From: Escherichia coli
GTDB taxonomy: Bacteria > Pseudomonadota > Gammaproteobacteria > Enterobacterales > Enterobacteriaceae
DNA length: 64,000 nucleotides
NCBI RefSeq assembly: GCF_050920415.1
Contig: NZ_CP169309.1
Direction: 5' to 3' (one strand)
Within the stretch, counting starts at the first letter, position 1. Each line of letters opens with the position of its first letter. Positions 27,432-46,531 of the stretch are shown here, piece by piece. The notes under the pieces were generated by a model that ran no database searches, was not told the DNA's origin, and saw nothing but the letters and a program-made list of their open reading frames with translations. Both the position numbers and the translations under genes were made by a program.

Positions 27432-29902
27432 TGGCTATCAGTTGGATCCAGCCCAGCTTTGCCGGTGGTGAGATTGGACCGTCGTTGTACGGTCGTATCG
27501 ACATGGCGAAGTACCAGGTGGCATTGCGCAAGTGCGATAACTTTATCGTGCGGCAGTATGGCGGCGTTGAGAATCGACCTGGTACGCGTTTTGTCGGTGC
27601 CGCCAAATACCCAAATCGGAAATGCCGCCTGATCCCGTTCCAGTTCTCGACGGTTCAGACCTACGCTCTGGAGTTCGGACACCAGTACATGCGCGTTATC
27701 AAAGATGGTGCGTTGGTGCTGAACAGCAGCAATGTTATTTATGAAATTGCCACGCCATATACTGAAGCCGATCTGTTCCGAATTAAATTCACGCAAAGCG
27801 CCGACGTGCTTACGCTGGTTCACCCGGCATACCCGCCGAAAGAGTTGCGCCGCTATGCGCATGATAACTGGCAACTGGTTGATGTGGTAACGAAGAACGG
27901 GCCATTTGAAGATATCAATATTGACGAGTCAGTGACGGTTTATGCCAGCGCCAGCACCGGGACAATTACGTTAACGGCAAGCGCCTCTATTTTTGGCGCG
28001 GAGCAGGTAGGCAAATTGTTCTATCTGGAACAGCCTGCAGTGGATTCTGTGCCGGTATGGGAAACCAGTAAGAGTACGTCGATTGGCGATATTCGCCGTG
28101 CAGACAGTAACTACTATCGCGCCGTTACAGCAGGCAAAACAGGCACTTTGCGCCCTTCGCATACAGAAGGCACATCATGGGATGGCTGGGGCGGATCCGG
28201 TGATGATGATACCGGCATTGAGTGGGAGTATCTGCACAGTGGTTTTGGCATTGCCCGTATCTCTGCTGCAAATGGAACTACTGCAACTGCCGAGGTGATT
28301 TCCTATATCCCTTCGCAGGTCGTTGGCGAGGATAATGCCAGCTATAAATGGGCTAAATATGCCTGGAACAGTGTTAATGGTTATCCTGGCACTGTTGTTT
28401 ATTATCAACAACGTCTTTACTTCGCCGCATCGACTGCGTTCCCTCAGACTATCTGGGCCAGCCGTACTGGGGATTATAAGGATTTTGGCAAAAGCAATCC
28501 TACGCAGGATGATGACAGAATTATCTACACCTATGCCGGGCGTCAGGTTAATGAGATCCGTCACCTGATTGATGTAGGTTCGCTGGTGGCGCTGACTTCC
28601 GGAGGTGAGTACGTCATCACCGGCGACCAGAACAAAGTGTTAACCCCATCATCATTTGCATTTAGCTCTCAGGGATCAAATGGCTCAAGCAACGTCCCAC
28701 CAATTGCTGTGGCGAATATTGCTCTGTTCGTCCAGGAGAAAGGCAGTGTTGTCCGTGATCTGGCCTACTCATTCGATGTTGACGGCTATCAGGGGAACGA
28801 CCTTACTATCCTTGCCAATCATCTTTTTCAGAAGCACAGCATTGTTGACTGGTGCTTCTCTATTGTCCCTTACTCCAGCGCCTTCTGCATTCGTGATGAC
28901 GGTAAATTACTGGTGATGACCTATTTGCGTGATCAACAGGTTTTTGCATGGGCACCACAGTCCAGTACCGGAAAATATGAAAGCACATGCAGTATCAGCG
29001 AAGGAAATGAAGATGCGGTGTATTTCGTCGTTAACCGAACCGTTAACGGGCAAACAGTGAGATACATCGAGCGGCTGTCCAGCCGTTTATTTACCAGCGA
29101 TGAAGATGCTTTCTTTGTTGATTCTGGCCTTAGCTATGATGGAAGAAATACGTCTGACAGAACGATGACCATCACTGGTGGTTCTGGTGAATGGGATTAC
29201 CGCGTGGAATATACAATCAGTATTTCTGGTGGTGCGTACTTCACCAGTAGTGATGTCGGTGCGCAACTACAATTCCCTTATACCGGAACTGATCCTGATA
29301 CTGGCGATGAAGTGTCAAAAGAATTACGTTGCGACATTATTTCTGTAACCAGCAATACCGCTGTAGTGGTTCGTGCTAACAGGAACGTCCCGCCATCCCT
29401 CAGGAATGTGGCCACCACGAACTGGCAGATGGCGCGCCGGACATTTGGAGGCCTGTCTCATCTTGAAGGCCAGACCGTAAACATTCTCTCTGATGCGAAC
29501 GTGGAACCACAGAAAGTGGTTTCCGGAGGTGCCGTCACGCTGGAATCTCCGGGGGCTGTAGTGCACATCGGCCTGCCAATAACTGCTGAATTCGAAACAC
29601 TGGATATCAACATTAACGGACAGGAAACGCTGCTGGACAAAAAACAGGTGATCCCATCCGTTACTCTGGTTGTGAATGCCAGCCGCGGCATCTGGGCGAC
29701 TACGCCCGGCGGTAAATGGTACGAATATCCACAGCGTGAATTCGAGTTCTACGATGATCCTGTTGATGATGCTACCGGAAAAGTAGAAGTGAAACTGGAC
29801 AGTAACTGGGGCAAAAACGGACGTGTAAAAATCCGTCAGCTTGATCCGTTGCCGCTGTCTGTTCTTGCCGTTATTCCTCGCCTTACTGTTGGGGGATTCT
29901 GA
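27431..29902 (+). CDS. tail tubular protein B (T7 gp12-like)
   Basis: 823 aa; N-terminal pattern similar to T7 gp12. Confidence 0.65.
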   Translation: MAISWIQPSFAGGEIGPSLYGRIDMAKYQVALRKCDNFIVRQYGGVENRPGTRFVGAAKYPNRKCRLIPFQFSTVQTYALEFGHQYMRVIKDGALVLNSSNVIYEIATPYTEADLFRIKFTQSADVLTLVHPAYPPKELRRYAHDNWQLVDVVTKNGPFEDINIDESVTVYASASTGTITLTASASIFGAEQVGKLFYLEQPAVDSVPVWETSKSTSIGDIRRADSNYYRAVTAGKTGTLRPSHTEGTSWDGWGGSGDDDTGIEWEYLHSGFGIARISAANGTTATAEVISYIPSQVVGEDNASYKWAKYAWNSVNGYPGTVVYYQQRLYFAASTAFPQTIWASRTGDYKDFGKSNPTQDDDRIIYTYAGRQVNEIRHLIDVGSLVALTSGGEYVITGDQNKVLTPSSFAFSSQGSNGSSNVPPIAVANIALFVQEKGSVVRDLAYSFDVDGYQGNDLTILANHLFQKHSIVDWCFSIVPYSSAFCIRDDGKLLVMTYLRDQQVFAWAPQSSTGKYESTCSISEGNEDAVYFVVNRTVNGQTVRYIERLSSRLFTSDEDAFFVDSGLSYDGRNTSDRTMTITGGSGEWDYRVEYTISISGGAYFTSSDVGAQLQFPYTGTDPDTGDEVSKELRCDIISVTSNTAVVVRANRNVPPSLRNVATTNWQMARRTFGGLSHLEGQTVNILSDANVEPQKVVSGGAVTLESPGAVVHIGLPITAEFETLDININGQETLLDKKQVIPSVTLVVNASRGIWATTPGGKWYEYPQREFEFYDDPVDDATGKVEVKLDSNWGKNGRVKIRQLDPLPLSVLAVIPRLTVGGF

Positions 29903-30366
29903 TGATTGGTGTTCAAATTATTCCCGCAACCGAAGAGCATCTTCAGATGATTTTGCCGGATGTTCGTCAGGCTGATATTGACGAACTGTATGCGGTATCG
30001 CTGATGACTACCGAAGATGCGCTGCGTGTTGGTCTGCGCACTGCGACTATGGCCTGGTCAGGGTTCGCGAACGGAGAACTGGTAACCATGTTTGGTGTAT
30101 CTCCGGCGTCAATGATCGGTGGCAATGGTACGCCCTGGCTGGTCGGGACCAGCCGTATTGAAAAATATCAGAAGACATTTCTTCGCCACTGCCACCCTGT
30201 ATTGCGGCAGATGCTGGCAGTTTATCCGCGCCTGGAAAACTACGTCGACGAGCGAAACCATGTTGCCAAAGCATGGCTCCACTGGCTTGGATTCAGGCTT
30301 GAAGAAGCCGCGCCTTATGGTGCTCTTGGTCTTAATTTCCACAGATTTCACATGGAGAGAAAATAA
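29902..30366 (+). CDS. internal virion protein (gp13-like position)
   Basis: 154 aa; overlapping stop/start chain. Confidence 0.45.
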   Translation: MIGVQIIPATEEHLQMILPDVRQADIDELYAVSLMTTEDALRVGLRTATMAWSGFANGELVTMFGVSPASMIGGNGTPWLVGTSRIEKYQKTFLRHCHPVLRQMLAVYPRLENYVDERNHVAKAWLHWLGFRLEEAAPYGALGLNFHRFHMERK

Positions 30367-30911
30367 TGTGCGATCCGGTTATTGCTGGTGGCGCAATGCT
30401 CGCCATGAGTGGCATTCAGGCATACACCCAGTACCAACAGGGAAAGTATGCCTCGAAGGTTGCAGAAGCGAACGCAGATATAGCCACAGCTCAGGCAAAT
30501 GATGCAATAAATAGGGGTAACGCTGAAGCTGAGCAACGGCGCAGAGAGACCCGACAGCGGCTTGGTACACAGGCGGCGACAATGGGGGCGACCGGCGCCG
30601 ATTTATCTACAGGTAACGCGCTGGATATATTTGGTGACACTGCTCAGTTTGGCGCCCTTGATTCGCTGACGACGGTGAATAACGCGCAACGCGAGGCTTA
30701 CGGTTATCAGGTTCAGGCTGCTAACTATAAAGCAGAAGCCAGTTCAGCCCGTAAACAGGGGAATGTGGGAGCAGCAACAACATTGCTCACTGCGCCTCTG
30801 AAGGCATACGGTGCGTACCAGATGTTTGGTGGGACGTGGAGTCCGTTTACTCAAAGCACTCCTGCGCCAATCGGGGCAGCAGCAGGAACCAGATTACCTG
30901 GAGGATTATAA
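30366..30911 (+). CDS. internal virion protein (gp14-like position)
   Basis: 181 aa Ala/Gln-rich. Confidence 0.45.
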   Translation: MCDPVIAGGAMLAMSGIQAYTQYQQGKYASKVAEANADIATAQANDAINRGNAEAEQRRRETRQRLGTQAATMGATGADLSTGNALDIFGDTAQFGALDSLTTVNNAQREAYGYQVQAANYKAEASSARKQGNVGAATTLLTAPLKAYGAYQMFGGTWSPFTQSTPAPIGAAAGTRLPGGL

Positions 30912-33424
30912 TGCCAGTCGTACCAACAGTATCCGGACGTCAGGTTGAGAGCCGTGGAGTTCAGTCAGCAGGCTTGCAGACGTTTTCTCAGCCAGGTATT
31001 GGTGATGCTTTTGTTCGGGCAGGGGCAGAGACAATTGATGTTTTTGGTCAGGCAAAACAGCGTGCCAATATCGCTCTGGCTCAGGAGGCATCCCTTAAAC
31101 TCAGTCAGACAGGCAGCGATCTGCTGAATAACCCTGAAACAGGTTTGCTTAACCTGAAAGGGAAAAATGCTATTGGAAAAGGTCAGGAGTATACGCAGCA
31201 GTTTGATGCTCAGATCGAACAACTGGCTATGTCGCTGCCGGATGAACAGGCTCGTAATGCTTTCATGCAGCAGGCGCAGCAGCAGCGTATTCAGTTCACT
31301 ACGCAGGCCGGGCGGCACGAGATAGGGCAAATAAATGCCTACGAAGAAGGTCAGTTTCAGGCGACGCTGCTGAACAATGGTAAAAATGCCGCAGCATTGT
31401 ATGGCGACAATGCCGCATACGTATTGGCTAATAAGCAAACTTTCCAGCAAATTGAGGAGTACGGTGCTGCACATGGCTGGAGCGACGAGCAAATACAGGC
31501 CAAGAAAATCGAGTTTAAAGAGAAGGTTGCTGATGCAGCATTGTCCCAGTGGTCGGCAAACAATGCGATCTCATTTATCCAAAGTAATGGCGAGTTAAGC
31601 GATACTGCTGCTGGAGCTCGCCGTGCTGTAGCAGATAGTGACTCTTCCGAGCGTGCCCGTGGCATACGCAACAATAACCCAGGAAATCTCGAATACAGCA
31701 AAACTAATCCGTGGGTAGGCCAGACCGGTGATGATGGTCGATTTGCTAAATTCGAAACACCTGAACACGGGATTCGTGCATTAGGGCGGAACCTGATGTC
31801 GTATCAGAGGCAGGGTATTGATACCGTCAGCGAGATAATTAATCGCTGGGCACCGCCTACTGATAAAAATGACACTATGTCGTATATCAAAGCAGTGTGC
31901 GAACAACTTGGCGTTTCTGCTGATGAGCCTCTCGATGCATCTAATCCTGATACCCTGAAGGCGCTTTGTGCAGCCATTATCCATCATGAGAACGGTAGCC
32001 AGCCATACAGTGATCAGCAGTTAACTGCTGGTGTCAGTGCAGCACTTGGTTTATCAACAATTCCAACCAACACCAAACGCTATACCGGTAATGCAGCATT
32101 CGATGCGGCATCTCCTGAGGCGCAGGCAAGTTTTATGCGACAGGCGGATCAACTGCGTCGGCAGCAGCAGGCTGAATATAAAACGATGATTGACAGCCAG
32201 GTTCGCGATGCGACAGCTGCGTATATGCGTGGCGTTGAATTTCCTAACCCACCTGGTGAGGCTGATTTTATTGCAGCTTATGGAGTCAGAGAAGGAAAAC
32301 TGCGATATACCGAGTTCAGAAATACGCAAATCGCCGGACAGTATATAGGCTCTTTCCGCAACATGCCGACAAGCAGCATTACAGCATATGTTGAGCAATT
32401 ACGCCCGGATACTGGTGAGACAGGGGAGGGTTATGCGGCACGAGCCGCTCTTTATGACAACGTTGTGTCGGCTGCAAGTCAGGTGATAAAGCAGCGACAG
32501 GCTGATCCTGTACAGTTCTCTCTTGCCGCCGGACAGGCAAAGCCTATCGACATGAGCAATAAGGATAACTTTGGACAGAGCGTTGCCTTGCGTGCTGCTC
32601 AGGTCAGTGACCTTGCTAAGTCATATGGCACTCCACTGACGTTCTTTTCCAAAGACGAGGCCAATCAGATCGGTGTTTTCTTTCGTGATGCGCCCGTTTC
32701 CCAACAGGCAGCATATCTCGATACCATCAGGCAGAGCACTGGTGGTGGGCAGGTGTATATGTCAGCACTACAGCAGATCAGTGCCAACGCTCCATCTGCT
32801 GCCGTTGCCGGGATACTGATGGATAAGCCAGGTGGTATTTTGGCAGAAAAAAACTGGTTTAATCCGGATGTTTCCGTGTCTCCTGAAACCGCTGCGCAGA
32901 CAATTCTTGCTGGCGCGGCGGCTCGTAAAGGTACTGATGACGCGAAAGGTATTCCGATGCCTAAAGATGCTGATCTCCGCCTTGAGTTTTCTGACATGGT
33001 GAAGGATGCATTTGCTGGTGATGCTCAGGGGGCATCAATGGCATACGAGATCGCAAAGGACTATTACGCTGGTGTGATGGCGAAAAAAGGCGTGGTATCA
33101 GGCGAAATTGACAATGATATCTGGAAACAGGCTGTTAACGTAGCTACAGGTGGCGTGCATGACTATAACGGAATGGGGAATGTTCTTTTGCCGTGGGGAA
33201 TGTCTGCAGAGCAATTCGATAAGCAGGTTAATCAGGCTTGGAATGAACAAGTTGTTGGCACAGGGATAAAAACACCGCCTGGTCAGTATGGTTTGCAAAG
33301 TTACGGCGATAGTCAGTACCTGGTGAAACTTGGTACTGGTTATCTGCTAAAAGATGATGGTTCTCCCGTTGTTCTTGATCTGACACAGAAGCGTCAGAGA
33401 TTCTCCGGAGATATTCCGCAATGA
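30911..33424 (+). CDS. internal virion/ejection protein with candidate cell-wall hydrolase motif
   Basis: 837 aa; GIRNNNPGNLEY...GRFAKFETPEHGIRALGRNL segment. Confidence 0.55.
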   Translation: MPVVPTVSGRQVESRGVQSAGLQTFSQPGIGDAFVRAGAETIDVFGQAKQRANIALAQEASLKLSQTGSDLLNNPETGLLNLKGKNAIGKGQEYTQQFDAQIEQLAMSLPDEQARNAFMQQAQQQRIQFTTQAGRHEIGQINAYEEGQFQATLLNNGKNAAALYGDNAAYVLANKQTFQQIEEYGAAHGWSDEQIQAKKIEFKEKVADAALSQWSANNAISFIQSNGELSDTAAGARRAVADSDSSERARGIRNNNPGNLEYSKTNPWVGQTGDDGRFAKFETPEHGIRALGRNLMSYQRQGIDTVSEIINRWAPPTDKNDTMSYIKAVCEQLGVSADEPLDASNPDTLKALCAAIIHHENGSQPYSDQQLTAGVSAALGLSTIPTNTKRYTGNAAFDAASPEAQASFMRQADQLRRQQQAEYKTMIDSQVRDATAAYMRGVEFPNPPGEADFIAAYGVREGKLRYTEFRNTQIAGQYIGSFRNMPTSSITAYVEQLRPDTGETGEGYAARAALYDNVVSAASQVIKQRQADPVQFSLAAGQAKPIDMSNKDNFGQSVALRAAQVSDLAKSYGTPLTFFSKDEANQIGVFFRDAPVSQQAAYLDTIRQSTGGGQVYMSALQQISANAPSAAVAGILMDKPGGILAEKNWFNPDVSVSPETAAQTILAGAAARKGTDDAKGIPMPKDADLRLEFSDMVKDAFAGDAQGASMAYEIAKDYYAGVMAKKGVVSGEIDNDIWKQAVNVATGGVHDYNGMGNVLLPWGMSAEQFDKQVNQAWNEQVVGTGIKTPPGQYGLQSYGDSQYLVKLGTGYLLKDDGSPVVLDLTQKRQRFSGDIPQ

Positions 33425-35223
33425 GTTACTTTGGCCTTAATCCAGTAAACCAGAATCAGCAGCTTGACGAAGCAGCATCAAATCCAGCTGGCTTTAACAG
33501 CGATGTTGGTTTTTTCGACAATGCTGTAGGAGCGGCATTGTCTGGTTTGTACTCCGGGCTGGTGGCAAAGCCAGATCAGTTGCTCTGGGCAGGGATGGAT
33601 AAAATCGTATCCCCGATTGCTCAGTTTGTTAACGAAAACACCTCGCTCAATGACACTTCAGTTTCATACATTGCCGAGCAGAGAAAACTAGCAGAGCAGC
33701 AGGTTAAGCGGCTGACGCCTGATGCCGCGACAACCGGAACCGCCGGGCAGGTTCTTTATGGGTTGTTCGATATGGGCGGGCAGGCTGTTATCGGTACAAC
33801 GCTCGGTGGTCCGGCCGGAGGTGCTGCGGCGGTAACTTCGCTACAGGGTTTTTCTGAGTTTGAACGGCTGACAGCACAGGGTGTTGATTTCAGGACGGCG
33901 CAGGAAGCGGGATTAGTGCAGGGTATTACTGCTGGTGCCGGAACAATGATCCCTATGAGCCTCGGGTTACGTGCTGGTGGTGCGCTGGCGGAAGGTGTGG
34001 CGGCTCAGCTTGCGCGGACGGGTGAAAGTTCAGTGCGACGCGCCGCAGCAACAGCAGTAAGTGCAACGCCAGATATTGCCTATGCCGCAGGTACAAATAT
34101 TGCGTTCGGTATGGCACAGCGTGGGCTTACTGCAAAAACGCTTCGTGATGGTGGCTATAGCGAAATGGCTAACCAGTATGATGTGTTGGATCGACAGGCA
34201 ATTGCTATTGATGCTGTTCTTGGGGTGGCGTTTGGTGGTGTCGGCAGATTTATTAACTCTCGCGGCGAGTCTACAAGCGCACCAAATTTTTCACCAGTTG
34301 ATATTGATGCTGCACTGGCGGCGAATGCCGCTCATCATGCTGAAATTGATATTGCGCCCGGCGTGCCGATCAACGTGCTTTCGCGCAATTCTCACATTCA
34401 GGCTCTGCGAAAAGCTATGTCTGATGTTAGCCAGGGGAGACCTGTAGACGTTGCCAGCATTGTTGAGTCTGCATCTTTCAGTGAAATTCCTGGGCGCAAG
34501 AGTCTGCTGTCTCAGGCAGTTAATGAGGCTCTGTCATCTGTAGATGATGGAGTAACGGCGCGCGCTATAGAAAATCGGTTGCTTGAAGAACAGGCCGCGC
34601 AGCTTTTGCCGCGTGGAGATAGACAGGTTTACCAGTCTGAAATCGCTAATAGCCAACGAATTATTGAAAATCTCACTGAACAGCGTGCACAAATTCTTGC
34701 AGAAGAGCCAACCGGTAGCGGTAAAGCTTTGTCTCGTGCTCGATCAGATAAACAGGCCAGACTTCGTGATATTGATCAACGAATCCGGCAGGCACAAGAA
34801 CGCCTGGAATTTTCCCGTAACGCGTTGGCACCGCACGAGCCTGGAGGTCAGTTTTTTGAAGCTCGAGCAGAACTGGCACGGCGACAGCAGGCAGAAAGTG
34901 AACTTAATGCTCAGGCTGTTTCATTCTATAAAACAGCAGAGGTCAGGACGCCAGACGAAGTAGCTCCTTTTGAGCCCGGTAAGATATTGCAACAGACAGA
35001 ACAAAAAATGATGGCAGATCCGGCAGGAGATATTGATCTGCGTATAGCTGAAGACTCGCTGCTTGAATCACCTGACATGATAATCACCGTGCTGGATGAT
35101 GATGGTAATCCACAATCGCGCAGTGCGCGTGAAGTACTGGATGAAGCTAACAGGGAAAGTGAGCAGGCAATACAGGATTCCAGCCTGTTTGATGTTGCTG
35201 TGGCGTGTTTCTTGAGAGGTTAA
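33421..35223 (+). CDS. internal virion/ejection protein
   Basis: 600 aa, Ala/Gly-rich, overlaps flanking genes. Confidence 0.55.
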   Translation: MSYFGLNPVNQNQQLDEAASNPAGFNSDVGFFDNAVGAALSGLYSGLVAKPDQLLWAGMDKIVSPIAQFVNENTSLNDTSVSYIAEQRKLAEQQVKRLTPDAATTGTAGQVLYGLFDMGGQAVIGTTLGGPAGGAAAVTSLQGFSEFERLTAQGVDFRTAQEAGLVQGITAGAGTMIPMSLGLRAGGALAEGVAAQLARTGESSVRRAAATAVSATPDIAYAAGTNIAFGMAQRGLTAKTLRDGGYSEMANQYDVLDRQAIAIDAVLGVAFGGVGRFINSRGESTSAPNFSPVDIDAALAANAAHHAEIDIAPGVPINVLSRNSHIQALRKAMSDVSQGRPVDVASIVESASFSEIPGRKSLLSQAVNEALSSVDDGVTARAIENRLLEEQAAQLLPRGDRQVYQSEIANSQRIIENLTEQRAQILAEEPTGSGKALSRARSDKQARLRDIDQRIRQAQERLEFSRNALAPHEPGGQFFEARAELARRQQAESELNAQAVSFYKTAEVRTPDEVAPFEPGKILQQTEQKMMADPAGDIDLRIAEDSLLESPDMIITVLDDDGNPQSRSAREVLDEANRESEQAIQDSSLFDVAVACFLRG

Positions 35224-35786
35224 ATTAAATGAGACAGGAATGTATACAAGCGGTCCAGCAGGCGGCGCAGCGCACGTTAACGGCGCGAGAAATACAGAAC
35301 ATTGAAGACCGCATTTATCGCAATATGCGCTCCATTGCTCGTGATGACCCTATGTCGTGGCGACAACTTTCCGAGTCAGAGCGGCTGTATCGTGCAGCAC
35401 AATTGGCATCTGAAGAATTACAGCGAGAAGCGGCATTAAAGAAACGTCGTGTGGCTCTCACTATAGCTGCACGTCAGAGATTGGATAAATTTATCAATAG
35501 CTATCAAGGGGCTGATGGGAAACTTGGCGCTCTTAACCGTACTATAGCTTTTAATGCAGACGGTAAATCTAATTTCCTCTCTGTTGAATCCAGAACAAAA
35601 GCCACCCGTGATTATGCATTGAGTCAATTGCAGGAGGCATTCGAAGCAGTTGATCCTCGCTTTTTTGGTCTGTTTGAAGATGAAGCGGGCGTACGTAGAC
35701 TGGCCCCCTGAATCTCCAGACAACCAGTATCACTTAAATAAGTGATAGTCTTAATACTAGTTTTTAGACTAGTCATTGGAGAACAG

Positions 35787-36152
35787 ATGATTGATGTCTT
35801 AGGGCCGGAGAAACGCAGACGGCGTACCACACAGGAAAAGATCGCAATTGTTCAGCAGAGCTTTGAACCGGGGATGACGGTCTCCCTCGTTGCCCGGCAA
35901 CATGGTGTAGCAGCCAGCCAGTTATTTCTCTGGCGTAAGCAATACCAGGAAGGAAGTCTTACTGCTGTCGCCGCCGGAGAACAGGTTGTTCCTGCCTCTG
36001 AACTTGCTGCCGCCATGAAGCAGATTAAAGAACTCCAGCGCCTGCTCGGCAAGAAAACGATGGAAAATGAACTCCTCAAAGAAGCCGTTGAATATGGACG
36101 GGCAAAAAAGTGGATAGCGCACGCGCCCTTATTGCCCGGGGATGGGGAGTAA
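35787..36152 (+). CDS. insC: IS2 transposase OrfA
   Basis: [26 protein letters not shown]... matches recalled InsC. Confidence 0.9.
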
Positions 36153-37015
36153 GCTTAGTCAGCCGTTGTCTCCGGGTGTCGCGTGCGCAGTTGCACGTCA
36201 TTCTCAGACGAACCGATGACTGGATGGATGGCCGCCGCAGTCGTCACACTGATGATACGGATGTGCTTCTCCGTATACACCATGTTATCGGAGAGCTGCC
36301 CACGTATGGTTATCGTCGGGTATGGGCGCTGCTTCGCAGACAGGCAGAACTTGATGGTATGCCTGCGATCAATGCCAAACGTGTTTACCGGATCATGCGC
36401 CAGAATGCGCTGTTGCTTGAGCGAAAACCTGCTGTACCGCCATCGAAACGGGCACATACAGGCAGAGTGGCCGTGAAAGAAAGCAATCAGCGATGGTGCT
36501 CTGACGGGTTCGAGTTCTGCTGTGATAACGGAGAGAGACTGCGTGTCACGTTCGCGCTGGACTGCTGTGATCGTGAGGCACTGCACTGGGCGGTGACTAC
36601 TGGCGGCTTCAACAGTGAAACAGTACAGGACGTCATGCTGGGAGCGGTGGAACGCCGCTTCGGCAACGATCTTCCGTCGTCTCCAGTGGAGTGGCTGACG
36701 GATAATGGTTCATGCTACCGGGCTAATGAAACACGCCAGTTCGCCCGGATGTTGGGACTTGAACCGAAGAACACGGCGGTGCGGAGTCCGGAGAGTAACG
36801 GAATAGCAGAGAGCTTCGTGAAAACGATAAAGCGTGACTACATCAGTATCATGCCCAAACCAGACGGGTTAACGGCAGCAAAGAACCTTGCAGAGGCGTT
36901 CGAGCATTATAACGAATGGCATCCGCATAGTGCGCTGGGTTATCGCTCGCCACGGGAATATCTGCGGCAGCGGGCTTGTAATGGGTTAAGTGATAACAGA
37001 TGTCTGGAAATATAG
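36110..37015 (+). CDS. insD: IS2 transposase OrfB
   Basis: 301-aa ORF, DDE catalytic domain; matches recalled InsD. Confidence 0.9.
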
Positions 37016-39048
37016 GGGCAAATCCAGTACGTGACCTGGTATATGAAATGCGGGGGCAAAATACTGGCAATGCTAAAGCAAGAAAAGGTGCTAAGGCGTG
37101 GAGAGAAGTTACAGAGCTGCTGCGCCGCCGGTTTAATGATGCTGGTGGGGACATTGGCTATCTCGAAAACTGGGGGATCCCTCAACATCATTCTATGGAA
37201 AAGGTTGGGGCGGTATCAAAGGATAAGTGGGTTAGCGATGTTATAGGTAAGCTGGATCGCAAATATTATATCCGAGCCGATGGACAACTGATGAACGATG
37301 CCGAGTTGTCTGCATTTCTTGGAGAGGCTTATAACACGATCGCTACTGGTGGGCTGAATAAGCTTACTGATACCGGAATGCGAATTTCCGGCGCACGTGC
37401 TAACCGTGGTAATGCATCACGACAGATACATTTCAAAGATGCAGATTCCTATCTGCAATATCAGCAACTTTATGGCGATCGCTCTCTATGGGAAATCATG
37501 GTCGGTCACCTGGAAGGTATCAGTAAAGATATTGCACTGGTGGAAACATATGGCCCAAACCCCGATCATGTTTTCCGCTCTCTTCTTGATCAGGTGAAGG
37601 CAGAAACGGCAACAGCTAACCCGAGTAAAACCGGTAAAGTCGAGCGGCTGGCGAACAACACAGAGAATCTGTACAACTTTATTTCCGGAAAGACACAGCC
37701 TGTAGCAAATCCGCACATCGCGCGATGGTCTGACAATATCCGCAACTGGCTGGTTGCCAGCAGACTCGGATCCGCGTTGCTGTCATCGTTCTCTGATCTT
37801 GGAACCATGTATCTGTCTGCGAAGGTGACCAACCTTCCAATGAACCAGTTATTCCGCAACCAGCTTGAAGCTATGGACCCAACGAACCGTACTGAGCTTG
37901 CGCGGGCGCGCCGCGCTGGTCTGGCGATGGAATCTCTACTTGGCAGCGTTAACCGCTGGGCGATGGATAATATGGGGCCGTCAGTGTCTCGTTGGGCTGC
38001 AACGGCGGTAATGCGTGCCAGTGGGCTTACAGCATGGTCAGATGCGCACAAGCGCGCCTATGGCGTAACCATGATGGGAAGCCTGGGAGAAGTAGTGTCA
38101 CGGACACCAGACCTTCGTAGCCTCGATGACTCTGATTTTCGTATCCTGAAAAGCAAAGGGATTACTGACACAGACTGGAGCGTATGGAAGCTGGCGCAAC
38201 AGGAGGACTGGGGGAACGGTAATAATACGATGCTGACACCGGAAAGCATTATGCGTATCCCTGATTCAGCAGTTAAACATCTTGGTGAGCCTGAACGCGT
38301 GAAATTTGAGGCAATGCGTAAACTGCTCGGTGCCGTAACTGAAGAAGTTGATATGGCTGTTATTACACCGGGAGCACGTGAGCAACTGATAACCGGTTCT
38401 GGTATTCAGCGTGGAACATGGAAAGGTGAATTAACGAGAAGTGTTTTCCTGTTTAAATCGTTCCCTATCTCGGTGGTTATGCGTCACTGGTCACGCGCTA
38501 TGGGTATGCCGTCTGCTGGTGGGCGTGCGGCATATATTGCGACGTTTATTGCCAGCACGACCATTCTTGGCGCTTTGTCTCAGCAACTTAACGACCTTGC
38601 GTCTGGTCGTAATCATCGCGAGATGACAGGAGAAGATGCTGCTAAATTTTGGCTTGGTGCTCTACTGAAAGGTGGTGGTCTTGGCCTTTACGGTGACTTT
38701 TTATTGTCAGATCACACTAGGTACGGAAGCGGCGCGCTGGCGTCGATGCTTGGCCCGGTAGCTGGTCTGGTTGATGACGTAGTGAAGATTGCTCAGGGCA
38801 TACCGTTAAATGCTGTGGAAGGGAAGAATGAGCAGACTGGTGGTGATCTGGTTAAGCTGGGGAAGGGGCTGATGCCAGGTGCGAATCTCTGGTACTTGAA
38901 GGCGGCTCTCGATCACATGATCTTTAACCAGATGCAGGAGTATTTTTCACCAGGCTATTTGCGTAAAATGGAGCAACGTTCGAAGAAAGAGTTTAACCAG
39001 ACATACTGGTGGCGACCACAGGATGTCACTCCGCAATAAGGATGAGAA

Positions 39049-39189
39049 ATGATTGCTTTTATTCTTGTTGTGTTTGCGCTTGTTGCACTTGGCGTTATGA
39101 ACCGTAAATGTATCATTGACGATGGCGAATTTGCTGTTGCAGTTATTTTGATATTATCTGGTGTAGCAGGATACATAGGCTTGTCATAA
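39049..39189 (+). CDS. small hydrophobic membrane protein (46 aa)
   Basis: MIAFILVVFALVALGV...; AAGGATGAG RBS; not in ORF track. Confidence 0.3.
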   Translation: MIAFILVVFALVALGVMNRKCIIDDGEFAVAVILILSGVAGYIGLS

Positions 39190-39195
39190 CGTGAG

Positions 39196-39209
39196 TGTGA
39201 CATGTCACA
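39196..39209. repeat. palindrome TGTGACATGTCACA, copy 3
   Basis: Perfect 14-bp palindrome immediately before terminator. Confidence 0.6.
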
Positions 39210-39233
39210 GGCCGCTTTCGCGGCCTTTTCTTT
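39210..39233 (+). terminator. rho-independent terminator after virion-protein operon
   Basis: ggccgc-tttc-gcggcc then TTTTCTTT. Confidence 0.7.
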
Positions 39234-39507
39234 ATGTGGTTTGTTTTCGTAGTTGTTCGGCACAATAGTCGAGATGTGTTTGCAGATCCTGCATAGACAT
39301 CTGTGAGCTGGTGACGTAGTTAATCAGTGCAGTCAGTTCGGCAAGTGGGCCATCGACATTAAATCCATCCTTATCGAGATCCCGGAGTAATTTCATCAAG
39401 TGCGATCCTTCCACCAGTGACCTGACGCCTCCCGGCGTGTGAATCCTTTCGGTAAATCCCTCTTCCAGTGGATAGTGATACTGCTGCATCTTATCTTCTC
39501 CATGCAA
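39232..39507 (-). CDS. hypothetical protein (opposite-strand moron before tail fibre)
   Basis: 91 aa (or 85 from second ATG); family not recognised. Confidence 0.4.
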   Translation of the reverse strand: MHGEDKMQQYHYPLEEGFTERIHTPGGVRSLVEGSHLMKLLRDLDKDGFNVDGPLAELTALINYVTSSQMSMQDLQTHLDYCAEQLRKQTT

Positions 39508-39565
39508 TAACTGTATGTTTATACAGTATCAAATAATTTGTTTGCTATCCAGCACGTTTTGCGAA

Positions 39566-39580
39566 TCACCTGAAAGGTAA
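39566..39580. promoter_or_regulatory. operator-like palindrome TCACC TGAAA GGTAA
   Basis: Divergent region between moron and tail fibre; extra half-site near 39623. Confidence 0.5.
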
Positions 39581-39684
39581 TATCTGCTCACATTAACACT
39601 CTTTCCATCCATATATGGTTTTTCAGGTAATAGAATAACCAGATATGCGGCGCAACGGGTGCTGCGACTATCTGGAGATTTAAC

Positions 39685-41940
39685 ATGACGGTCTCAACCG
39701 AAGTTGACCACAACGAATACACAGGCAATGGCGTTACGACTTCATTCCCTTATACCTTTAGGGTTTTCAAGGAATCTGATCTGGTAGTGCAGGTGGTTGA
39801 CCTTGACGAAAATATCGCTGTGCTGGCTCTGGATACTGATTACACTGTCACTGGGGCTGGTGGATATAACGGCGGTAATGTAATTCTGTCGAAGGCGTTA
39901 GCTAACGGTTACCAGATTTCTATATCACGAGAGCTCCCGGTTACGCAGGAAACTGATTTGCGTAATCAGGGGAAGTTCTTTGCAGAAGTGCATGAGGATG
40001 CTTTTGATAAGCTAACGATGCTGATCCAGCAGGTTCGAAGTTGGTTTAGCTTGGCGCTGCGCAAGCCGTCATTCGTGGCAAATTATTATAACGCGCTGAA
40101 CAACTATATTCGAAACCTGAAAGACCCGGTAAACCCGCAGGATGCATCCACAAAGAATTATGTGGACAGTACGGTTTTATCGAATATCGACCATACAATC
40201 CGTGTTCCTGATTCTTATATCGATCCGCTGCCACCTCTCGCTCAACTTGAAGGAAGCATAATCGGCATCGCCAACGGTAAGCCCGTTCCGTTCCCTGTGC
40301 CTTCAGGAACGGCGGCTGACGTATTCAACCAGTTGGCCAGCAGCGCTGACGGGAAAGGTGATGCGCTGATAACAGTGAAGCAGCCTTACCAGGGGGCAAT
40401 TTCTCTTTCGCAGCATATAAAAAATGCACAAGCCATTAGTGTTGTTGATTTTGGAGCGACAATTGATGGAACGCTTCACCCTTTAAGCGAGATATTTTCA
40501 ACACTATCAGCTGCTCAGATGGTATATCCATTTGTTTCATCTCTATCTCAATCTGTTGATTATGCTGCGCTTCAGTCCGCATGTAACACGGGAAAAACAG
40601 TGCTTATTCCAAAGGGAACTGGTTACTATAATTCAACTATTTTTCTGAAAAACTCCGTTAGGATTGTTGGAGAGGGAACTGATACAATAAATAGAGCGCA
40701 ATCATTTATGTCTATTGTTGGTAATATTTCAGCCTTTGCTTTAGATCAAGGTGATTCCCTATCGACAAAAATGATTCAGATTTTTATTGATGGTCTTTAT
40801 ATTTTCTATGATCCAGGAACCACACCAACGAATCCTGAAAATGATGGTGGGAAAATTGCATTTAATTTCTACTCGACAATTCCAAATTCAACAAGCTTGG
40901 AAATGTCTGAAATTAAAAACTGTACAGTTCATGGTGCATGGTCATGCTTTAATGATCAGACTGGCACATACTTGACAAAACTTACGAATGTGTGGGCCAG
41001 AAACTGCCATAATGGTTTTACAAAAGGAACTGGCACTACCATTCTGATGGAAAGATGTTATACATCTGGATGTATATCACCATATCAGTTTGGTTCTGTC
41101 TTTGCAGCTACAATGATTAACTGTGCCATGGATGGATCAAATATTTCGTTAAACGCAGGTTCGCTTGGTGGGGCTGGCGTTCATGTTCTTAACACACATA
41201 GTTTTAACATTATTGGTTTTGATGCGGAGGGTAACACCATCTCTACAGATGGTTATGGAGAGGCAGCACTATTCCATTTCGAAAATAGTAGTGGTGGCAT
41301 TTCTGGCCTGACTGCACATCAGAACAGCATGCGAAGTGTTGCGCCAAGTGATGCTGGTGTAGTTTCCTACATCAGGGCGTCAGGTAGCAGCGATGTTAAA
41401 ATTGAGTCATCAGAAGATGATTTATCTGACACCAACACAGTTGCATATACTGGGTCTGGGTATCCCATCATGCTACATGCAACTGACACAGCTAAAATAA
41501 GCGTCTTTAATAGCAGATTCAGGGCGACTACCACTGGTACCCCTGTCTTAAGTACGCTAAGTACTGGTGATGTATCATGGTATGACTGCCCTAAAAAAAC
41601 AGGACTTATCGTAGATGGTTATTCACAAATAACATCTAAGGAAGGATTGCAAACATCATGCTTCTATACCAGTAAAGGCTCTACTGCTGTTGCTGAAAAT
41701 ACTCCGACAACACTTTTCTCTCTACCAGATTCGCAAGGTACTTACATTATTAGCGTATGGGTGGCTGGAAGCGGAGAAAATTACGCATCTACACAACTGG
41801 CAATGTATGATGGAGATAAGCTAATTCTTGTTGCGTTAAAAATAGCAGCATTTCTTAGTTTTTCAGCAACAGGGAGAATTGTAACCATTACAAGCCAGGT
41901 GGCAGGCACTTTAAACTGGACTTACACTAAAATAGGTTGA
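39685..41940 (+). CDS. tail fibre/tailspike with T7 gp17-like N-terminal adaptor domain
   Basis: 751 aa; N-terminal ...YTGNGVTTSFPYTFRVFKESDLVV...DTDYTV pattern; Gly/Ser/Thr-rich C-terminal region. Confidence 0.7.
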   Translation: MTVSTEVDHNEYTGNGVTTSFPYTFRVFKESDLVVQVVDLDENIAVLALDTDYTVTGAGGYNGGNVILSKALANGYQISISRELPVTQETDLRNQGKFFAEVHEDAFDKLTMLIQQVRSWFSLALRKPSFVANYYNALNNYIRNLKDPVNPQDASTKNYVDSTVLSNIDHTIRVPDSYIDPLPPLAQLEGSIIGIANGKPVPFPVPSGTAADVFNQLASSADGKGDALITVKQPYQGAISLSQHIKNAQAISVVDFGATIDGTLHPLSEIFSTLSAAQMVYPFVSSLSQSVDYAALQSACNTGKTVLIPKGTGYYNSTIFLKNSVRIVGEGTDTINRAQSFMSIVGNISAFALDQGDSLSTKMIQIFIDGLYIFYDPGTTPTNPENDGGKIAFNFYSTIPNSTSLEMSEIKNCTVHGAWSCFNDQTGTYLTKLTNVWARNCHNGFTKGTGTTILMERCYTSGCISPYQFGSVFAATMINCAMDGSNISLNAGSLGGAGVHVLNTHSFNIIGFDAEGNTISTDGYGEAALFHFENSSGGISGLTAHQNSMRSVAPSDAGVVSYIRASGSSDVKIESSEDDLSDTNTVAYTGSGYPIMLHATDTAKISVFNSRFRATTTGTPVLSTLSTGDVSWYDCPKKTGLIVDGYSQITSKEGLQTSCFYTSKGSTAVAENTPTTLFSLPDSQGTYIISVWVAGSGENYASTQLAMYDGDKLILVALKIAAFLSFSATGRIVTITSQVAGTLNWTYTKIG

Positions 41941-41950
41941 TGTTATGCGT

Positions 41951-41967
41951 GGGGAGCAATGCTCCCC
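41951..41967. terminator. hairpin between convergent tail-fibre and acyltransferase genes
   Basis: ggggagc-aat-gctcccc; no clear T-tract on either strand. Confidence 0.3.
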
Positions 41968-41975
41968 ATCATCAA

Positions 41976-43835
41976 TTAAAAAATAAATGGCTTGTCATTT
42001 TTTAATTTTTTCCCAAACTCCCTTGAGCCTTCTAGAGTGAAATGACTATTATCAAAGTAAAGATAATCACCTTTAGTAGAAAGGATGTCACAATTCATTG
42101 ACTTTCCGCACTGCTCGGCAAGCGTATCTATGTATTTATACGAATGCTGGTTGCTACCAAGATAGCCTTTTATCGTATTGTTAATTTCAACTCTACTATT
42201 GTCATAATACTTTTTAGAGTATTTATTTATCCCATCAACTGTGTTTACGCCAGATTTAAAAGCAGACTTAATTATTTCCATTGGCTGTGCCGTAAACTTC
42301 ATCTTAGGCCCAAATACAATAACTTCTCCTTTAGTCCTCTCCTGTATTTTGCCTATAGAGTAAAGCATCCCGAACAGATCGCCAACGCCATAATCATCAT
42401 GAAGGATTATAATGTTAGCTTCAGCTATGGCTGGAGATGAGATTACGTCATTGAATATTTTTTTGCACTTTTCTACATAGGGCATGTCGTTTGGTGTATA
42501 ACCAAAGTTTGAACATAAGTTTGTAGTTCTTATATAAGTTATATCACCCTTCATCCCATTTTCAGTAAGTGCATAAGTCAGATCTATGCCATGAGAATTA
42601 CCGATTATTACTATTTTTTTGTCACCTGTCTTCGGTACAGGGTGAGGCTTGTCTCCATCAACCCAATACCTGTTCATTTGTTCTTTTAGCTGTTCGGACG
42701 TCATTGTGGCAAACGAAAACCTTGATGGAATTCCAGATAGCAATAGTACAGCGAAGCACAAACCAACTACACCACCTACAGGTAGCACGATTGAAGTTAA
42801 TTCATTCAAGGACCTGCCGTTTTTAAATTTTGAAAGTGCCTTTCTTGAAGGGTTTTCAATTAAATAAAATGATGCGGCACCAATAAGAATTGATAAGGCA
42901 ACACCTGATACTGTATAAACCATATCATCCATCTTATTCATTGACATATATACAACTATGGGCCAGTGAACCAGATATACCGAGTATGAAATTTTCCCAA
43001 CCCATTGAGATAATGCATTATCAAGTAATAGGTTATCTTTACATCCAAGATAAATGACAAAGAAAGTAGAAACGACTGGTATTAAGGCAAGATACCCAGG
43101 CCACTTCATTAAGCTGTTAAGCAAGACTATCCCCGATACTGCAAAGGCTATGGCAATCCATCTAAATACAGCAGTGCGTTTTGAATTTTGTATAGTAGGA
43201 AGAAGGTAGGCAAGGCCGCCAGCCAGCATCTCCCAAGCTCTGCTTGACAGAAGATAAAATGCAGCGCCCTGATTATTATAAGAAAGATACACTGAGGCAG
43301 TAAATGATATAATTGCAAGGATGGCAACAACATACCTTATATGCTTAGCGCCCAATAGCTTTGCAATCACCATCATTATGATTGGATATACCATGTAAAA
43401 CTGCCACTCTACAGAAAGCGACCATGTATGAAGAAGCCATTTCTGCTTTGATGCAGTATCAAAATAATCAATGCTATGGTAATACTCAACGTTTGAGAAA
43501 AATAAAAGGCTACTTCTTACGTGTTGAGCCAGGTATTCATATTCAGAAGGTAAAAGAATGAAGTAACCAACTATCAGAACAGCAACTGAAACTACAGTTA
43601 AAGCAGGTATAATTCTTCTTGCCCTATCAAGATAAAATCCTAACAGTGAAAAGTTTCCATTAGATATCTTTGTGTAAATTATTCCAGTCATCAGATACCC
43701 TGATATAACAAAGAATATATCTACGCCTGAAAATCCACCAGAGAACCCTTTGACTCCGAAGTGATAAAGGACAACTGCCATAACAGCAATAGCCCTAAGC
43801 CCGCCTATATCTGTTCTGTATTTTAAAGAAGACAT
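41976..43835 (-). CDS. O-antigen acyltransferase (acyltransferase-3 membrane domain + C-terminal SGNH-like domain, OafA-like)
   Basis: 619 aa; N-terminal multi-TM with ...AVVLYHF...DIFFVISGYL...; lysogenic-conversion candidate. Confidence 0.75.
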   Translation of the reverse strand: MSSLKYRTDIGGLRAIAVMAVVLYHFGVKGFSGGFSGVDIFFVISGYLMTGIIYTKISNGNFSLLGFYLDRARRIIPALTVVSVAVLIVGYFILLPSEYEYLAQHVRSSLLFFSNVEYYHSIDYFDTASKQKWLLHTWSLSVEWQFYMVYPIIMMVIAKLLGAKHIRYVVAILAIISFTASVYLSYNNQGAAFYLLSSRAWEMLAGGLAYLLPTIQNSKRTAVFRWIAIAFAVSGIVLLNSLMKWPGYLALIPVVSTFFVIYLGCKDNLLLDNALSQWVGKISYSVYLVHWPIVVYMSMNKMDDMVYTVSGVALSILIGAASFYLIENPSRKALSKFKNGRSLNELTSIVLPVGGVVGLCFAVLLLSGIPSRFSFATMTSEQLKEQMNRYWVDGDKPHPVPKTGDKKIVIIGNSHGIDLTYALTENGMKGDITYIRTTNLCSNFGYTPNDMPYVEKCKKIFNDVISSPAIAEANIIILHDDYGVGDLFGMLYSIGKIQERTKGEVIVFGPKMKFTAQPMEIIKSAFKSGVNTVDGINKYSKKYYDNSRVEINNTIKGYLGSNQHSYKYIDTLAEQCGKSMNCDILSTKGDYLYFDNSHFTLEGSREFGKKLKNDKPFIF

Positions 43836-43871
43836 AATCGCTATCGTTTTGAGTAAGATGCATTAATGATA

Positions 43872-43886
43872 TCACCTTTAGGGTAA
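43872..43886. promoter_or_regulatory. operator-like palindrome TCACC TTTAG GGTAA
   Basis: Divergent region between acyltransferase and lysis cassette. Confidence 0.5.
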
Positions 43887-43991
43887 TTTCGTTAAGAGTT
43901 ATCCGATCAAATTTAATCCACATATGGTTTATTGTGTATGATGAACTCACCAACTAAGGGGGTTCTTTATGCACAATAAACGGTGGTCACT

Positions 43992-44396
43992 ATGGCGCAT
44001 GTGCTGACAACAGAGTCAGTAAATCAGGGGTTAAGCCTGACTGCACTGGCGTCCGTGTTCGTTGGTATACCGCCTGAGGTGGCTTTAGGTGCTCTTGCTG
44101 GTGCGGTAATTTTTGTTACCTCAGCGGTTGAGTATCCGATAAAGCGTAGGTTGCTCCTGGCGCTCCTAAGCTTCCTCTGCGGCGTTCTCTTCTATAAAGC
44201 GACAGCTTCCATTCTGATTGGCTTTGCCAGCCTGATACCAACGATTACGCAGGACTCTTTTGAGAAGGGCATTGTGTATTCCGCCGGGGCATTCGTGTCT
44301 GCAATCGTCGCTGTTCGCATTGGCATCTGGCTGTATCACCGTTCTGAAAATCCGCGCGACATGATCCCGGGGAGAAAAGACGATGACCAGTCCTGA
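43992..44396 (+). CDS. holin-like membrane protein
   Basis: Multi-TM, first gene of lysis cassette; start 43983 (GTG) or 43992 (ATG). Confidence 0.45.
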   Translation: MAHVLTTESVNQGLSLTALASVFVGIPPEVALGALAGAVIFVTSAVEYPIKRRLLLALLSFLCGVLFYKATASILIGFASLIPTITQDSFEKGIVYSAGAFVSAIVAVRIGIWLYHRSENPRDMIPGRKDDDQS

Positions 44397-45884: not shown

Positions 45885-45901
45885 ATTGAGTGGGAATGAT
45901 T
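45885..45901. repeat. attR core (ATTGAGTGGGAATGATT)
   Basis: Exact copy of 6047-6063. Confidence 0.65.
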
Positions 45902-45928
45902 TGATCCCTGCACTATGAATTAGCAAAA

Positions 45929-45954
45929 CCCTCTGTTACTACAGAGGGTTTTTA
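45929..45954 (+). terminator. native guaA-type terminator hairpin displaced by the prophage
   Basis: ccctctg-ttacta-cagaggg then TTTTT; same stem as phage-side copy at 6110. Confidence 0.6.
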
Positions 45955-45991
45955 TACTCACGAATCATAGGATTGAAGTTACTGACATCGC

Positions 45992-46531
45992 TTAGTTAAA
46001 CCAGCTGTCCGATTTGTTCTCTTCTGCTTTGCCCACGCTTTTCATCAGATCGCGACCGCCTTCAGTCATATTCCTGTTTGCGTCAGCTTCAGATTGCACC
46101 ACATCGGTTTGCGCAGCTTTGTGCTTCAGTTCCTGATCGATAAATTCGTTTTCTCGCTTAACGCGGGCTTCTTCTTTCGCCAGCGCCAGTTTTTGTTTCT
46201 GAATCTCTAAGCTGCGTAGCTCATCTTCATAACTTTGATCGCGTTTCTTGTCCGCAGTGGCTTCGGCGTCCAGTTTATCCTGACGAGCTTTCTTATTCGC
46301 CGCTGCCGTTGCCGCTCTTTTATTAGCCGCGGCCTGGGCGTTTGCGCGACGTTGCTTCTCTTGCTGGATTTCCCTGTTGCGCTCCGCGACCCATTCGTCA
46401 TGCTGCCTTTGCTCTTCATTTTTACCTTGCTGTTCCGCTTCTGCGACAGCAGAGAGTTGATCCTGCAATGATGAGGCGATAGCCGGATAGCTTAAGGAGG
46501 CTAAGATGGCGCAAAGAAAAACTTTCTTCAT
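45992..46531 (-). CDS. yfgI: periplasmic protein YfgI
   Basis: 179 aa with signal peptide; position between guaA and yfgH as in K-12. Confidence 0.75.
   Translation of the reverse strand: MKKVFLCAILASLSYPAIASSLQDQLSAVAEAEQQGKNEEQRQHDEWVAERNREIQQEKQRRANAQAAANKRAATAAANKKARQDKLDAEATADKKRDQSYEDELRSLEIQKQKLALAKEEARVKRENEFIDQELKHKAAQTDVVQSEADANRNMTEGGRDLMKSVGKAEENKSDSWFN

Follow-up and report, generated by a model that had tools for sequence, protein, structure and literature searches.

An IS2 element interrupts codon 156 of a gp17-type virion gene in an otherwise intact prophage of Escherichia coli. Since the split protein probably belongs to the internal virion/ejection class needed for DNA delivery, particles produced from this prophage are assumed to be non-infectious, a reading to which we assign a probability of roughly 0.85. 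The gene is the last large gene of a late structural operon in the window, by which we mean the whole stretch of 64,000 nucleotides that was analysed. The coordinates of all features discussed are collected in Table 1.

Table 1. Features of the prophage, its late structural operon and the IS2 insertion, with positions in the window and the basis of each assignment (TSD, target-site duplication).
Feature	Position	Strand	Basis or remark
Uetakevirus (epsilon15/phiV10-like) prophage at guaA 3' end	6047-45901	+	att core repeat, empty attB, phage identity
Tubular tail A	26826-27431	+	full length; PHROG, tblastn
Tubular tail B	27431-29902	+	full length; PHROG, tblastn
IVP-A-like	29902-30366	+	full length; PHROG, tblastn
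T7 gp14-family core protein	30366-30911	+	full length; PHROG, tblastn
gp15-like protein with transglycosylase region	30911-33424	+	full length; PHROG, tblastn
gp16-like protein	33421-35223	+	full length; PHROG, tblastn
gp17-like virion gene, 5' part	35229-35695	+	codons 1-155 and 2 nt of codon 156
GTACG TSD, left copy	35691-35695	.	sequence
IS2	35696-37026	+	transposase genes co-directional with phage late operon
IS2 left inverted repeat (IRL), 42 bp	35696-35737	+	alignment of ends
IS2 orfA (insC), 121 aa, intact	35787-36152	+	NCBIfam NF006928
A6G programmed -1 frameshift window (AAAAAAG), joins orfA to orfB	36104-36110	+	sequence
IS2 orfB (insD), 301 aa, intact	36110-37015	+	NCBIfam NF006918
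IS2 right inverted repeat (IRR), 41 bp	36986-37026	+	alignment of ends
Chance hybrid ORF, 679 aa	37000-39039	+	ATG inside IS2 IRR
GTACG TSD, right copy	37027-37031	.	sequence
gp17-like virion gene, 3' part	37032-39039	+	rest of codon 156 to stop
46-aa membrane-like ORF, epsilon15 gp18 position	39049-39189	+	identical to SCU-116 CDS
Intrinsic terminator-like hairpin (AGGCCGC-TTTC-GCGGCCT, then T-run)	39209-39226	+	closes late structural operon

The IS2 copy and its target site

A sequence-only reading of this DNA had placed a complete 1331-bp IS2 (insC/insD) at 35696-37026 between 5-bp direct repeats of GTACG, all of which held on closer analysis. Direct reading and a script agreed on a length of exactly 1331 bp, and over its full length the element was 100% identical to copies annotated as 'IS3-like element IS2 family transposase'. 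It starts with TAGACTGGCCCCC and finishes with GGGGCAAATCCA, and an alignment of the ends showed imperfect inverted repeats of 42 and 41 bp with 31 matching positions and one gap, the lengths being those described for the IRL and IRR of IS2 (PMC3299598). OrfA matched NCBIfam NF006928 'IS2 repressor TnpA' with 276 bits (cut-off 229 bits) over positions 1-121 of 121, and OrfB matched NF006918 'IS2 transposase TnpB' with 728 bits (cut-off 597 bits) over positions 1-301 of 301. The A6G window, whose role in the -1 frameshift between orfA and orfB has been described (PMC3299598), is also present. The likeness to IS2 (IS3 family; insC/insD of K-12) comprises the length, the terminal repeats, OrfA and OrfB with the A6G window, and the 5-bp target duplication. 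Compared to known IS2 the element itself showed no differences, and within the records searched the novelty lies in the insertion site only. Near-full-length IS2 was found in 4058 of 5426 complete E. coli genomes. The contig also carries an IS629 with its own 3-bp duplication.

The GTACG motif flanks the element on both sides and occurs as a single copy in the uninterrupted gene of E. coli SCU-116, which represents the empty site. Removal of IS2 and one GTACG joins 35229-35695 to 37032-39039 and results in an unbroken frame of 2475 nt, which bears out the earlier proposal that the two flanks share a frame and together encode a protein of 824 aa. This product is identical to WP_001248460.1 from the uninterrupted prophage in SCU-116; between the reconstructed and the intact gene one synonymous base differs, and no amino acid. 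For a 5-bp repeat by chance alone the odds are 1/1024. Since the known protein and the single-copy GTACG site, at a position where 312 of the 313 complete E. coli genomes with the gene show no interruption, are both exactly restored, a chance origin of the combined pattern of IS2, duplication and reconstruction can be excluded on sequence grounds.

Two readings would question the interruption itself. If a multicopy IS2 had been misplaced during assembly, the real gene would be intact, and such an artefact is conceivable in general terms, as repeats often cause misassembly and IS2 is highly repeated in the lineage (31 matches in the sister genome). A misjoin, however, would neither make a perfect 5-bp duplication at a site with a single GTACG nor leave both flanks base-exact to the intact gene, and the contig passes cleanly through the IS629 and its 3-bp duplication, as in a finished or long-read assembly, so that an artefact is highly improbable. 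The flanking ORFs could also be naturally separate genes with IS2 in the spacer between them, for which the listing of two ORFs speaks, but nothing more. This reading is refuted by the intact gene of SCU-116 and the alignment with epsilon15 gp17: the joined sequence corresponds to one annotated CDS and an identical protein (SCU-116, phiv142-3, O157 typing phage 9), and its product aligns end to end with gp17. The two ORFs are therefore parts of one gene and not unrelated, as the sequence-only reading had maintained.

In one detail that reading has to be corrected. The upstream ORF was given as 35229-35695, and the part belonging to the gene does end at 35695, but the ORF itself runs 16 nt into IS2 to a TGA stop at 35709-35711. 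Its product comprises 160 aa, made up of 156 native residues followed by RLAP. At the junction the 3' part lacks a start codon, and its residues 155-824 showed 99.6% identity to Orf13 of phiv142-3 (tblastn). The hybrid ORF that opens inside the right inverted repeat would read MSGNIGANP, followed by residues 155-824 of the virion protein; on reading the sequence, no recognisable Shine-Dalgarno motif was found before its ATG at 37000. A promoter for the downstream fragment made by IS2, a possibility with the fusion-promoter background of PMC9330008, was considered and rejected: the -35 candidate TGGAAA (37005-37010) has no usable -10, and TACGTG stands where the -10 would be expected (about 37028-37033). 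For annotation, the two ORFs should be treated as one pseudogene and not as two hypothetical proteins.

The interrupted gene and its prophage

The 17-bp att core ATTGAGTGGGAATGATT marks both ends of the prophage, at 6047-6063 and 45885-45901, and the empty attB of a sister strain equals the left arm of attL, the core and the right arm of attR. Its left 24 kb showed 97-98% nucleotide identity over 80-93% to phiv142-3, PAS61, ZX5 and TL-2011b, and compared to the SCU-116 prophage the identity was 99.7-99.9%. Nucleotide similarity, gene order, integrase and att sites are those of a Uetakevirus. All remaining core phage genes were full length in a tblastn comparison with the phiv142-3 proteins, and among the genes common to the prophage and phiv142-3 no second prophage-killing lesion was found.

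From 26826 to 35223 the gene order is that of epsilon15. The split gene follows tubular tail A and B, IVP-A, IVP-B, gp15 and gp16, with the tailspike beyond it, and the annotation of epsilon15 shows a terminator at the place equivalent to the hairpin found here. Downstream of IS2, only the gp17-like gene and the 46-aa ORF precede the operon terminator, so that the damage does not reach beyond these two; the 46-aa ORF is the one further gene of the operon on which IS2 could exert a polar effect.

Against epsilon15 gp17 the 824-aa protein aligned with 28% identity and an E-value of 4e-108, covering residues 1-824 versus 1-907 (BLASTP), and PHROG 684 'virion structural protein' matched residues 1-824 at positions 1-831 of 840 with 1281 bits. 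Homologs were found in 133 phage records, several of which are annotated as 'internal virion protein' or 'virion structural protein'. With epsilon15 gp17 and its orthologs (phiV10, phiv142-3, SPN9TCW and BcepC6B gp17; PHROG 684) the protein shares full-length homology and the same gene position, while it is shorter than the epsilon15 protein (824 compared to 918 aa) and its gene is broken by IS2 at codon 156. Genes 15-17 of epsilon15 are reported to have been studied genetically by Guichard et al. 2013. By HMM-HMM work, epsilon15 gp17 has been placed in the T7 gp16-type IVP-D class and listed among possible constituents of the transient tail tube (PMC4819975), and PMC12391199 likewise mentions gp17 as a candidate tail-tube/injection component. 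Altogether, the earlier placement of the gene in the internal virion protein block is upheld by homology to gp17, by position and by the IVP-D class assignment (PMC4819975).

The AF2 model of the 824-aa protein is all-alpha with a pLDDT of 75, and in this model the IS2 break falls within the predicted helix H152-162 and not at a domain boundary. The model matched BFVD structures of Autographiviridae 'internal virion protein D/internal core protein' with E-values from 1e-7 to 5e-5, at a TMq of 0.40-0.55 and 12-13% identity, with predicted structures on both sides. No Pfam family was found for the protein even at an E-value of 10, searches of the full set of PDB chains with phmmer and with a profile built from 10 sequences yielded coiled-coil noise only, and Foldseek of the model against PDB returned nothing better than E 0.24. 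PHROG and Pfam showed no transglycosylase domain in it; the transglycosylase/endolysin PHROG matches belong to the gp15-like neighbour (30911-33424). Like T7 gp16, the IVP-D ejectosome component of Autographiviridae, the protein is large and almost all-helical and is encoded at the same relative gene position, but it comprises 824 instead of about 1300 aa, is devoid of the N-terminal lytic transglycosylase and showed no similarity to the solved T7 gp16 structures by sequence or by Foldseek. A putative relationship to T7 gp16 is inferred from synteny, the published HMM-HMM work and the predicted-structure similarity at TM 0.4-0.55.

Consequences for the prophage

The observed arrangement can be explained by transposition of IS2 via the usual copy-out/paste-in route of the IS3 family into a gene of 824 codons, at codon 156, which would have duplicated GTACG; the Uetakevirus prophage that carries the gene would itself be a recent acquisition at guaA. 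The gene would now give a 160-aa N-terminal stub and leave a 669-codon remainder that appears to have no proper translation start. The intact protein, which is conserved at this place among podophages, both epsilon15-like and many others, would be an IVP-D of the T7 gp16-like ejection class and needed for the delivery of DNA through the cell envelope. After induction, the prophage would presumably still excise, replicate, package and lyse, and the released particles would be unable to infect. Whereas the identity of IS2, its duplication, the exact reconstruction, the intact state of the other genes and the recency follow from the sequences, the function of the protein and the lack of infectivity, the latter strongly suggested, are inferred.

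An effectively functional prophage would require that the protein is dispensable, that the two fragments (residues 1-156 and 155-824) complement each other or that IS2 is, on rare occasions, excised precisely. Indeed, the two ORFs jointly encode every residue, an in-frame ATG is available downstream at 37000, every other phage gene is intact, and the 5-bp duplication is intact as well, hence excision would bring the wild-type sequence back exactly. Set against this, a single full-length ORF is kept not only in the 312 of 313 E. coli genomes but also in 111 phage records from distant hosts, which points to strong selection on the intact protein. Complementing fragments are further disfavoured by a break inside a predicted helix, by the missing Shine-Dalgarno motif at 37000 and by an outward -35 of IS2 without a well-spaced -10, while IS elements are, as a rule, excised precisely only on very rare occasions. 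A functional prophage is consequently regarded as unlikely. Still less probable, and in our view very doubtful, is the more specific proposal that IS2 acts as a reversible lock, its precise excision giving infectious phage, or that the ejection protein works in two pieces. If the strain possesses an IS-excision enhancer, this could favour such an excision; the IS629 it carries is of a type that often travels with an enhancer of this kind.

With a non-infectious particle as the preferred reading, which the sequence-only reading had put forward with due caution, annotation of the guaA prophage should flag one of its virion genes as disrupted. It probably no longer spreads as a phage, yet can give immunity and kill the cell on induction, and its acyltransferase can still alter the O-antigen, so that immunity and O-antigen modification would both continue to be conferred. 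The insertion is routine prophage decay, nothing new in kind, and touches no open question. It does show, cleanly and in a datable form, how such decay begins in a lineage with expanding IS2.

Recency and distribution of the insertion

The IS2 junction was restricted to the present contig in all collections searched. A 500-bp probe gave no locus covering the junction in 5426 complete E. coli genomes, and an 872-bp probe gave none in the phage collection. The exact junction 38-mer GAAGATGAAGCGGGCGTACGTAGACTGGCCCCCTGAAT was absent from the GTDB species-representative genomes, and the truncated product of 160 aa, sought as an exact match in a protein-position index, returned no record. In the closest complete genome, MFDS1022581, the right flank is 100.0% identical, attB is empty and the prophage is absent. 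This genome showed 31 IS2 matches, of which at least one per replicon was 100% identical to the present copy. Since the reconstructed protein carries no amino-acid changes, IS2 is identical to copies in the closest genome and the junction occurs in no other record searched, a recent insertion, which the sequence-only reading had deduced, is supported by the sequence comparisons.

IS-inactivated genes are also found in E. coli prophages of the Stx type, where likewise an IS3-family element sits in a phage gene with a target duplication; the comparison records include Stx2a phages whose nleG-like gene holds IS2, and VT2phi_272, where IS629 is the inserted element. Compared to these cases, IS2 is here the sole visible lesion of the prophage and lies in a structural gene of a Uetakevirus. 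As a separate observation, the ORFs of the present IS2 are intact and the closest genome holds many matches to it, which is consistent with a copy that may still be active in transposition.

The IS2 element and the split gene

The sequence-only reading had described a recent IS2 insertion in a gene of the internal virion protein (IVP) block and a prophage probably unable to make infectious particles. As to the insertion, this finding proved correct and well described; the case is an ordinary one, a known IS within a known kind of phage gene. Its coordinates for IS2 and the GTACG repeats were confirmed by sequence reading and a script. The ends of the element are imperfect inverted repeats, 42 and 41 bp long (31 matching positions in the alignment of the ends), its full length is 100% identical to copies annotated as "IS3-like element IS2 family transposase", and orfA and orfB match IS2-specific models over the whole profile above curated cut-offs, all of which fits IS2. 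The same features were described before (PMC3299598), including a 5-bp distance between the transposase's two catalytic centres, in agreement with the 5-bp duplication. Near-full-length IS2 occurs in 4058 of 5426 complete E. coli genomes.

Features of the prophage, the inserted element and the right flank
Feature	Position	Strand	Remarks
17-bp core repeat ATTGAGTGGGAATGATT	6047 and 45885		first copy in last codons of guaA
Integrase	6254-7504		single 416-aa ORF
Repressor	12398-12982
tRNA-Arg (anticodon TCT)	21221-21297	minus	phage-borne, between terminase and portal genes
GTACG direct repeats	35691-35695 and 37027-37031
IS2	35696-37026		1331 bp between GTACG copies; starts TAGACTGGCCCCC, ends GGGGCAAATCCA
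orfA	35787-36152		121 aa, intact; NCBIfam 276 bits (cut-off 229)
A6G slippery sequence	36104-36110		-1 frameshifting, fuses orfA and orfB
orfB	36110-37015		301 aa, intact; NCBIfam 728 bits (cut-off 597)
Hybrid ORF	37000-39039		679 aa; MSGNIGANP + residues 155-824; ATG inside IS2 right inverted repeat, in frame
46-aa ORF	39049-39189		between 3' part of split gene and hairpin
Strong terminator-like hairpin	39209-39226
Tailspike	39685-41940
Acyltransferase	41976-43835	minus	adjoins tailspike
IS629	49001-50310	minus	1310 bp, IS3-family; 97.2% full-length identity to annotated IS629

Joining 35229-35695 to 37032-39039 by script results in a 2475-nt ORF of 824 codons. A single synonymous base separates it from the intact coding sequence in the prophage of E. 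coli SCU-116 (WP_001248460.1); the two proteins are identical. The intact gene comprises only one GTACG at the insertion site, and a 736-nt probe across the repaired site was uninterrupted in 312 of the 313 complete genomes having the gene. These matches show the flanking ORFs to be two parts of a single gene and the insertion to be genuine. The proposed same-frame reconstruction of an ~824-aa protein was thus borne out, and the suggested comparison of this protein led to the SCU-116 protein, not to unrelated genes.

The upstream half runs 16 nt into IS2 to a stop at 35709-35711, so that the stub has 160 aa, of which 156 are native and the last four are RLAP. The downstream half lacks its own start; together, the stub and the hybrid ORF, which starts within the right end of IS2, encode all residues of the original protein. 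The break falls within a helix predicted by AlphaFold. A 165-aa viral protein (BFVD/UniProt A0A2I6TCD7) showed 100% identity to the first ~157 residues and may represent a further allele with its truncation at almost the same position. It was rejected as the window allele, whose 160-aa product is not on record.

Relationship to epsilon15 gp17

The placement of the split gene in the IVP block is upheld by gene order and homology. It is a full-length homolog of epsilon15 gp17 (28% identity, E 4e-108) and the last large gene of a block comprising tubular tail A, tubular tail B, an IVP-A-like protein, a T7 gp14-family core protein and gp15-like, gp16-like and gp17-like proteins, with a transglycosylase region on the gp15-like neighbour. 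The 824-aa protein aligns with PHROG 684 ("virion structural protein") from one end to the other, and homologs were found in 133 phage records (Vibrio, Pelagibacter, Pseudomonas, Burkholderia, Liberibacter and others); for some of them the annotation is internal virion protein. In a published HMM-HMM comparison (PMC4819975), epsilon15 gp17 and BcepC6B gp17, the latter also a match in our search, fall into the T7 IVP-D (gp16) class, and epsilon15 gp17 is named as a possible constituent of the transient tail tube. A passage in PMC12391199 citing Guichard et al. 2013 names gp15 and gp17/16 as injection device parts.

For the 824-aa protein, Pfam returned no family and a sequence search against solved structures no match. 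The AlphaFold model (10-sequence alignment, mean pLDDT 75, pTM 0.78) is almost all helical and found no Foldseek match in the PDB. Among predicted viral structures it matched its own family (E 1e-33 to 1e-17) and also "internal virion protein D", "internal core protein" and "internal virion protein" of phiKMV-like and other Autographiviridae (E 1e-7 to 5e-5, TM 0.40-0.55). T7 gp16 has a transglycosylase domain, whereas the 824-aa protein has none. Since our own tests of the IVP-D link were mixed, the protein is firmly assigned to the epsilon15 gp17 family and regarded as working like an IVP-D ejection protein, while strict IVP-D membership is not claimed.

State of the prophage

The prophage between the cores comprises 39.9 kb. 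In the closest complete genome, E. coli MFDS1022581, guaA carries no prophage, and the unoccupied site equals the attL left arm, the core and the attR right arm. The integrase is more intact than that of phiv142-3, since the latter deposit shows two "integrase-like" CDSs (122 and 294 aa) instead of one ORF. The repressor is followed by replication genes, terminase, portal, protease, capsid, tail and internal proteins, tailspike, acyltransferase and a lysis cassette. Epsilon15 has the same gene order, and phiv142-3 and the SCU-116 prophage carry tRNA-Arg at the same place. The left 24 kb showed 97-98% identity over 80-93% to phiv142-3, PAS61, ZX5 and TL-2011b (genus Uetakevirus), and the stretch from 14.4 to 39.2 kb 99.7-99.9% to the SCU-116 prophage. 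Only the N-terminal ~170-260 residues of the tailspike are common to relatives; its receptor-binding part and the acyltransferase, which probably modifies O-antigen, are rare: out of 5426 complete E. coli genomes, only FT130 matches at least 80% of 37027-44000. In tblastn, all phiv142-3 proteins with a counterpart gave full-length, uninterrupted matches except Orf13, which was split into residues 1-158 and 155-824 flanking IS2. Accordingly, IS2 is the only visible lesion.

As solely the 3' part of the gene and the 46-aa ORF lie between IS2 and the hairpin, any polar effect of IS2 stays local; tailspike and lysis genes form units of their own. The prophage would retain immunity, O-antigen modification, excision, replication, packaging and lysis, and would be without one of the conserved virion components, a part of the DNA-delivery apparatus. 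Because this component should be missing, we infer that non-infectious particles are the most likely outcome. On paper, precise excision of IS2 would restore the exact wild-type sequence, and the hybrid ORF, a product of chance, could be read from the ATG at 37000 through residues 155-824; by sequence reading, neither an obvious ribosome-binding site nor a usable fusion promoter was seen for it.

Age of the insertion and related prophages

Since the split gene carries no amino-acid changes, the insertion is young, and it came after a recent phage acquisition. The IS2 junction was absent from the complete E. coli genomes, phage records and GTDB representative genomes searched, and the stub was not found in a protein-position index. 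In MFDS1022581, 20 chromosomal and 11 plasmid IS2 matches were observed, at least one per replicon being 100% identical to the window copy; IS2 thus appears to be expanding in this lineage. The unchanged gene, the identical copies and the absence of the junction from the records searched together support the recent insertion originally proposed.

In the SCU-116 prophage (locus L001, 12203-14674, NZ_CP051719.1), the annotation of tubular tail B (gp12-like) gives a pseudogene with an internal stop, while the window has the gene intact (27431-29902); sibling prophages therefore decay via different lesions. Duck E. coli HL15 and SF10 (NZ_CP079771.1, NZ_CP079768.1) each carry the intact gene on a "plasmid" record of 41,027 bp and also have a chromosomal copy. 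Both records resemble the circular genome of a related Uetakevirus, either excised or episomal, suggesting activity among the intact relatives. The related prophage of Eco_23-2678 (NZ_CM176498.1) has an annotated "IS3 family transposase" between the gp17-like gene and the tailspike; here an IS struck this phage type independently, at another position.

Over the right chromosomal flank (45902-64000), identity to MFDS1022581 reaches 100.0%, save one extra IS in the window. IS629, flanked by a 3-bp duplication (CAT), lies in the chromosomal gene pdeF (yfgF), which codes for a c-di-GMP phosphodiesterase and is thereby split into ORFs at 47919-49040 and 50321-51475; in MFDS1022581, pdeF is intact.
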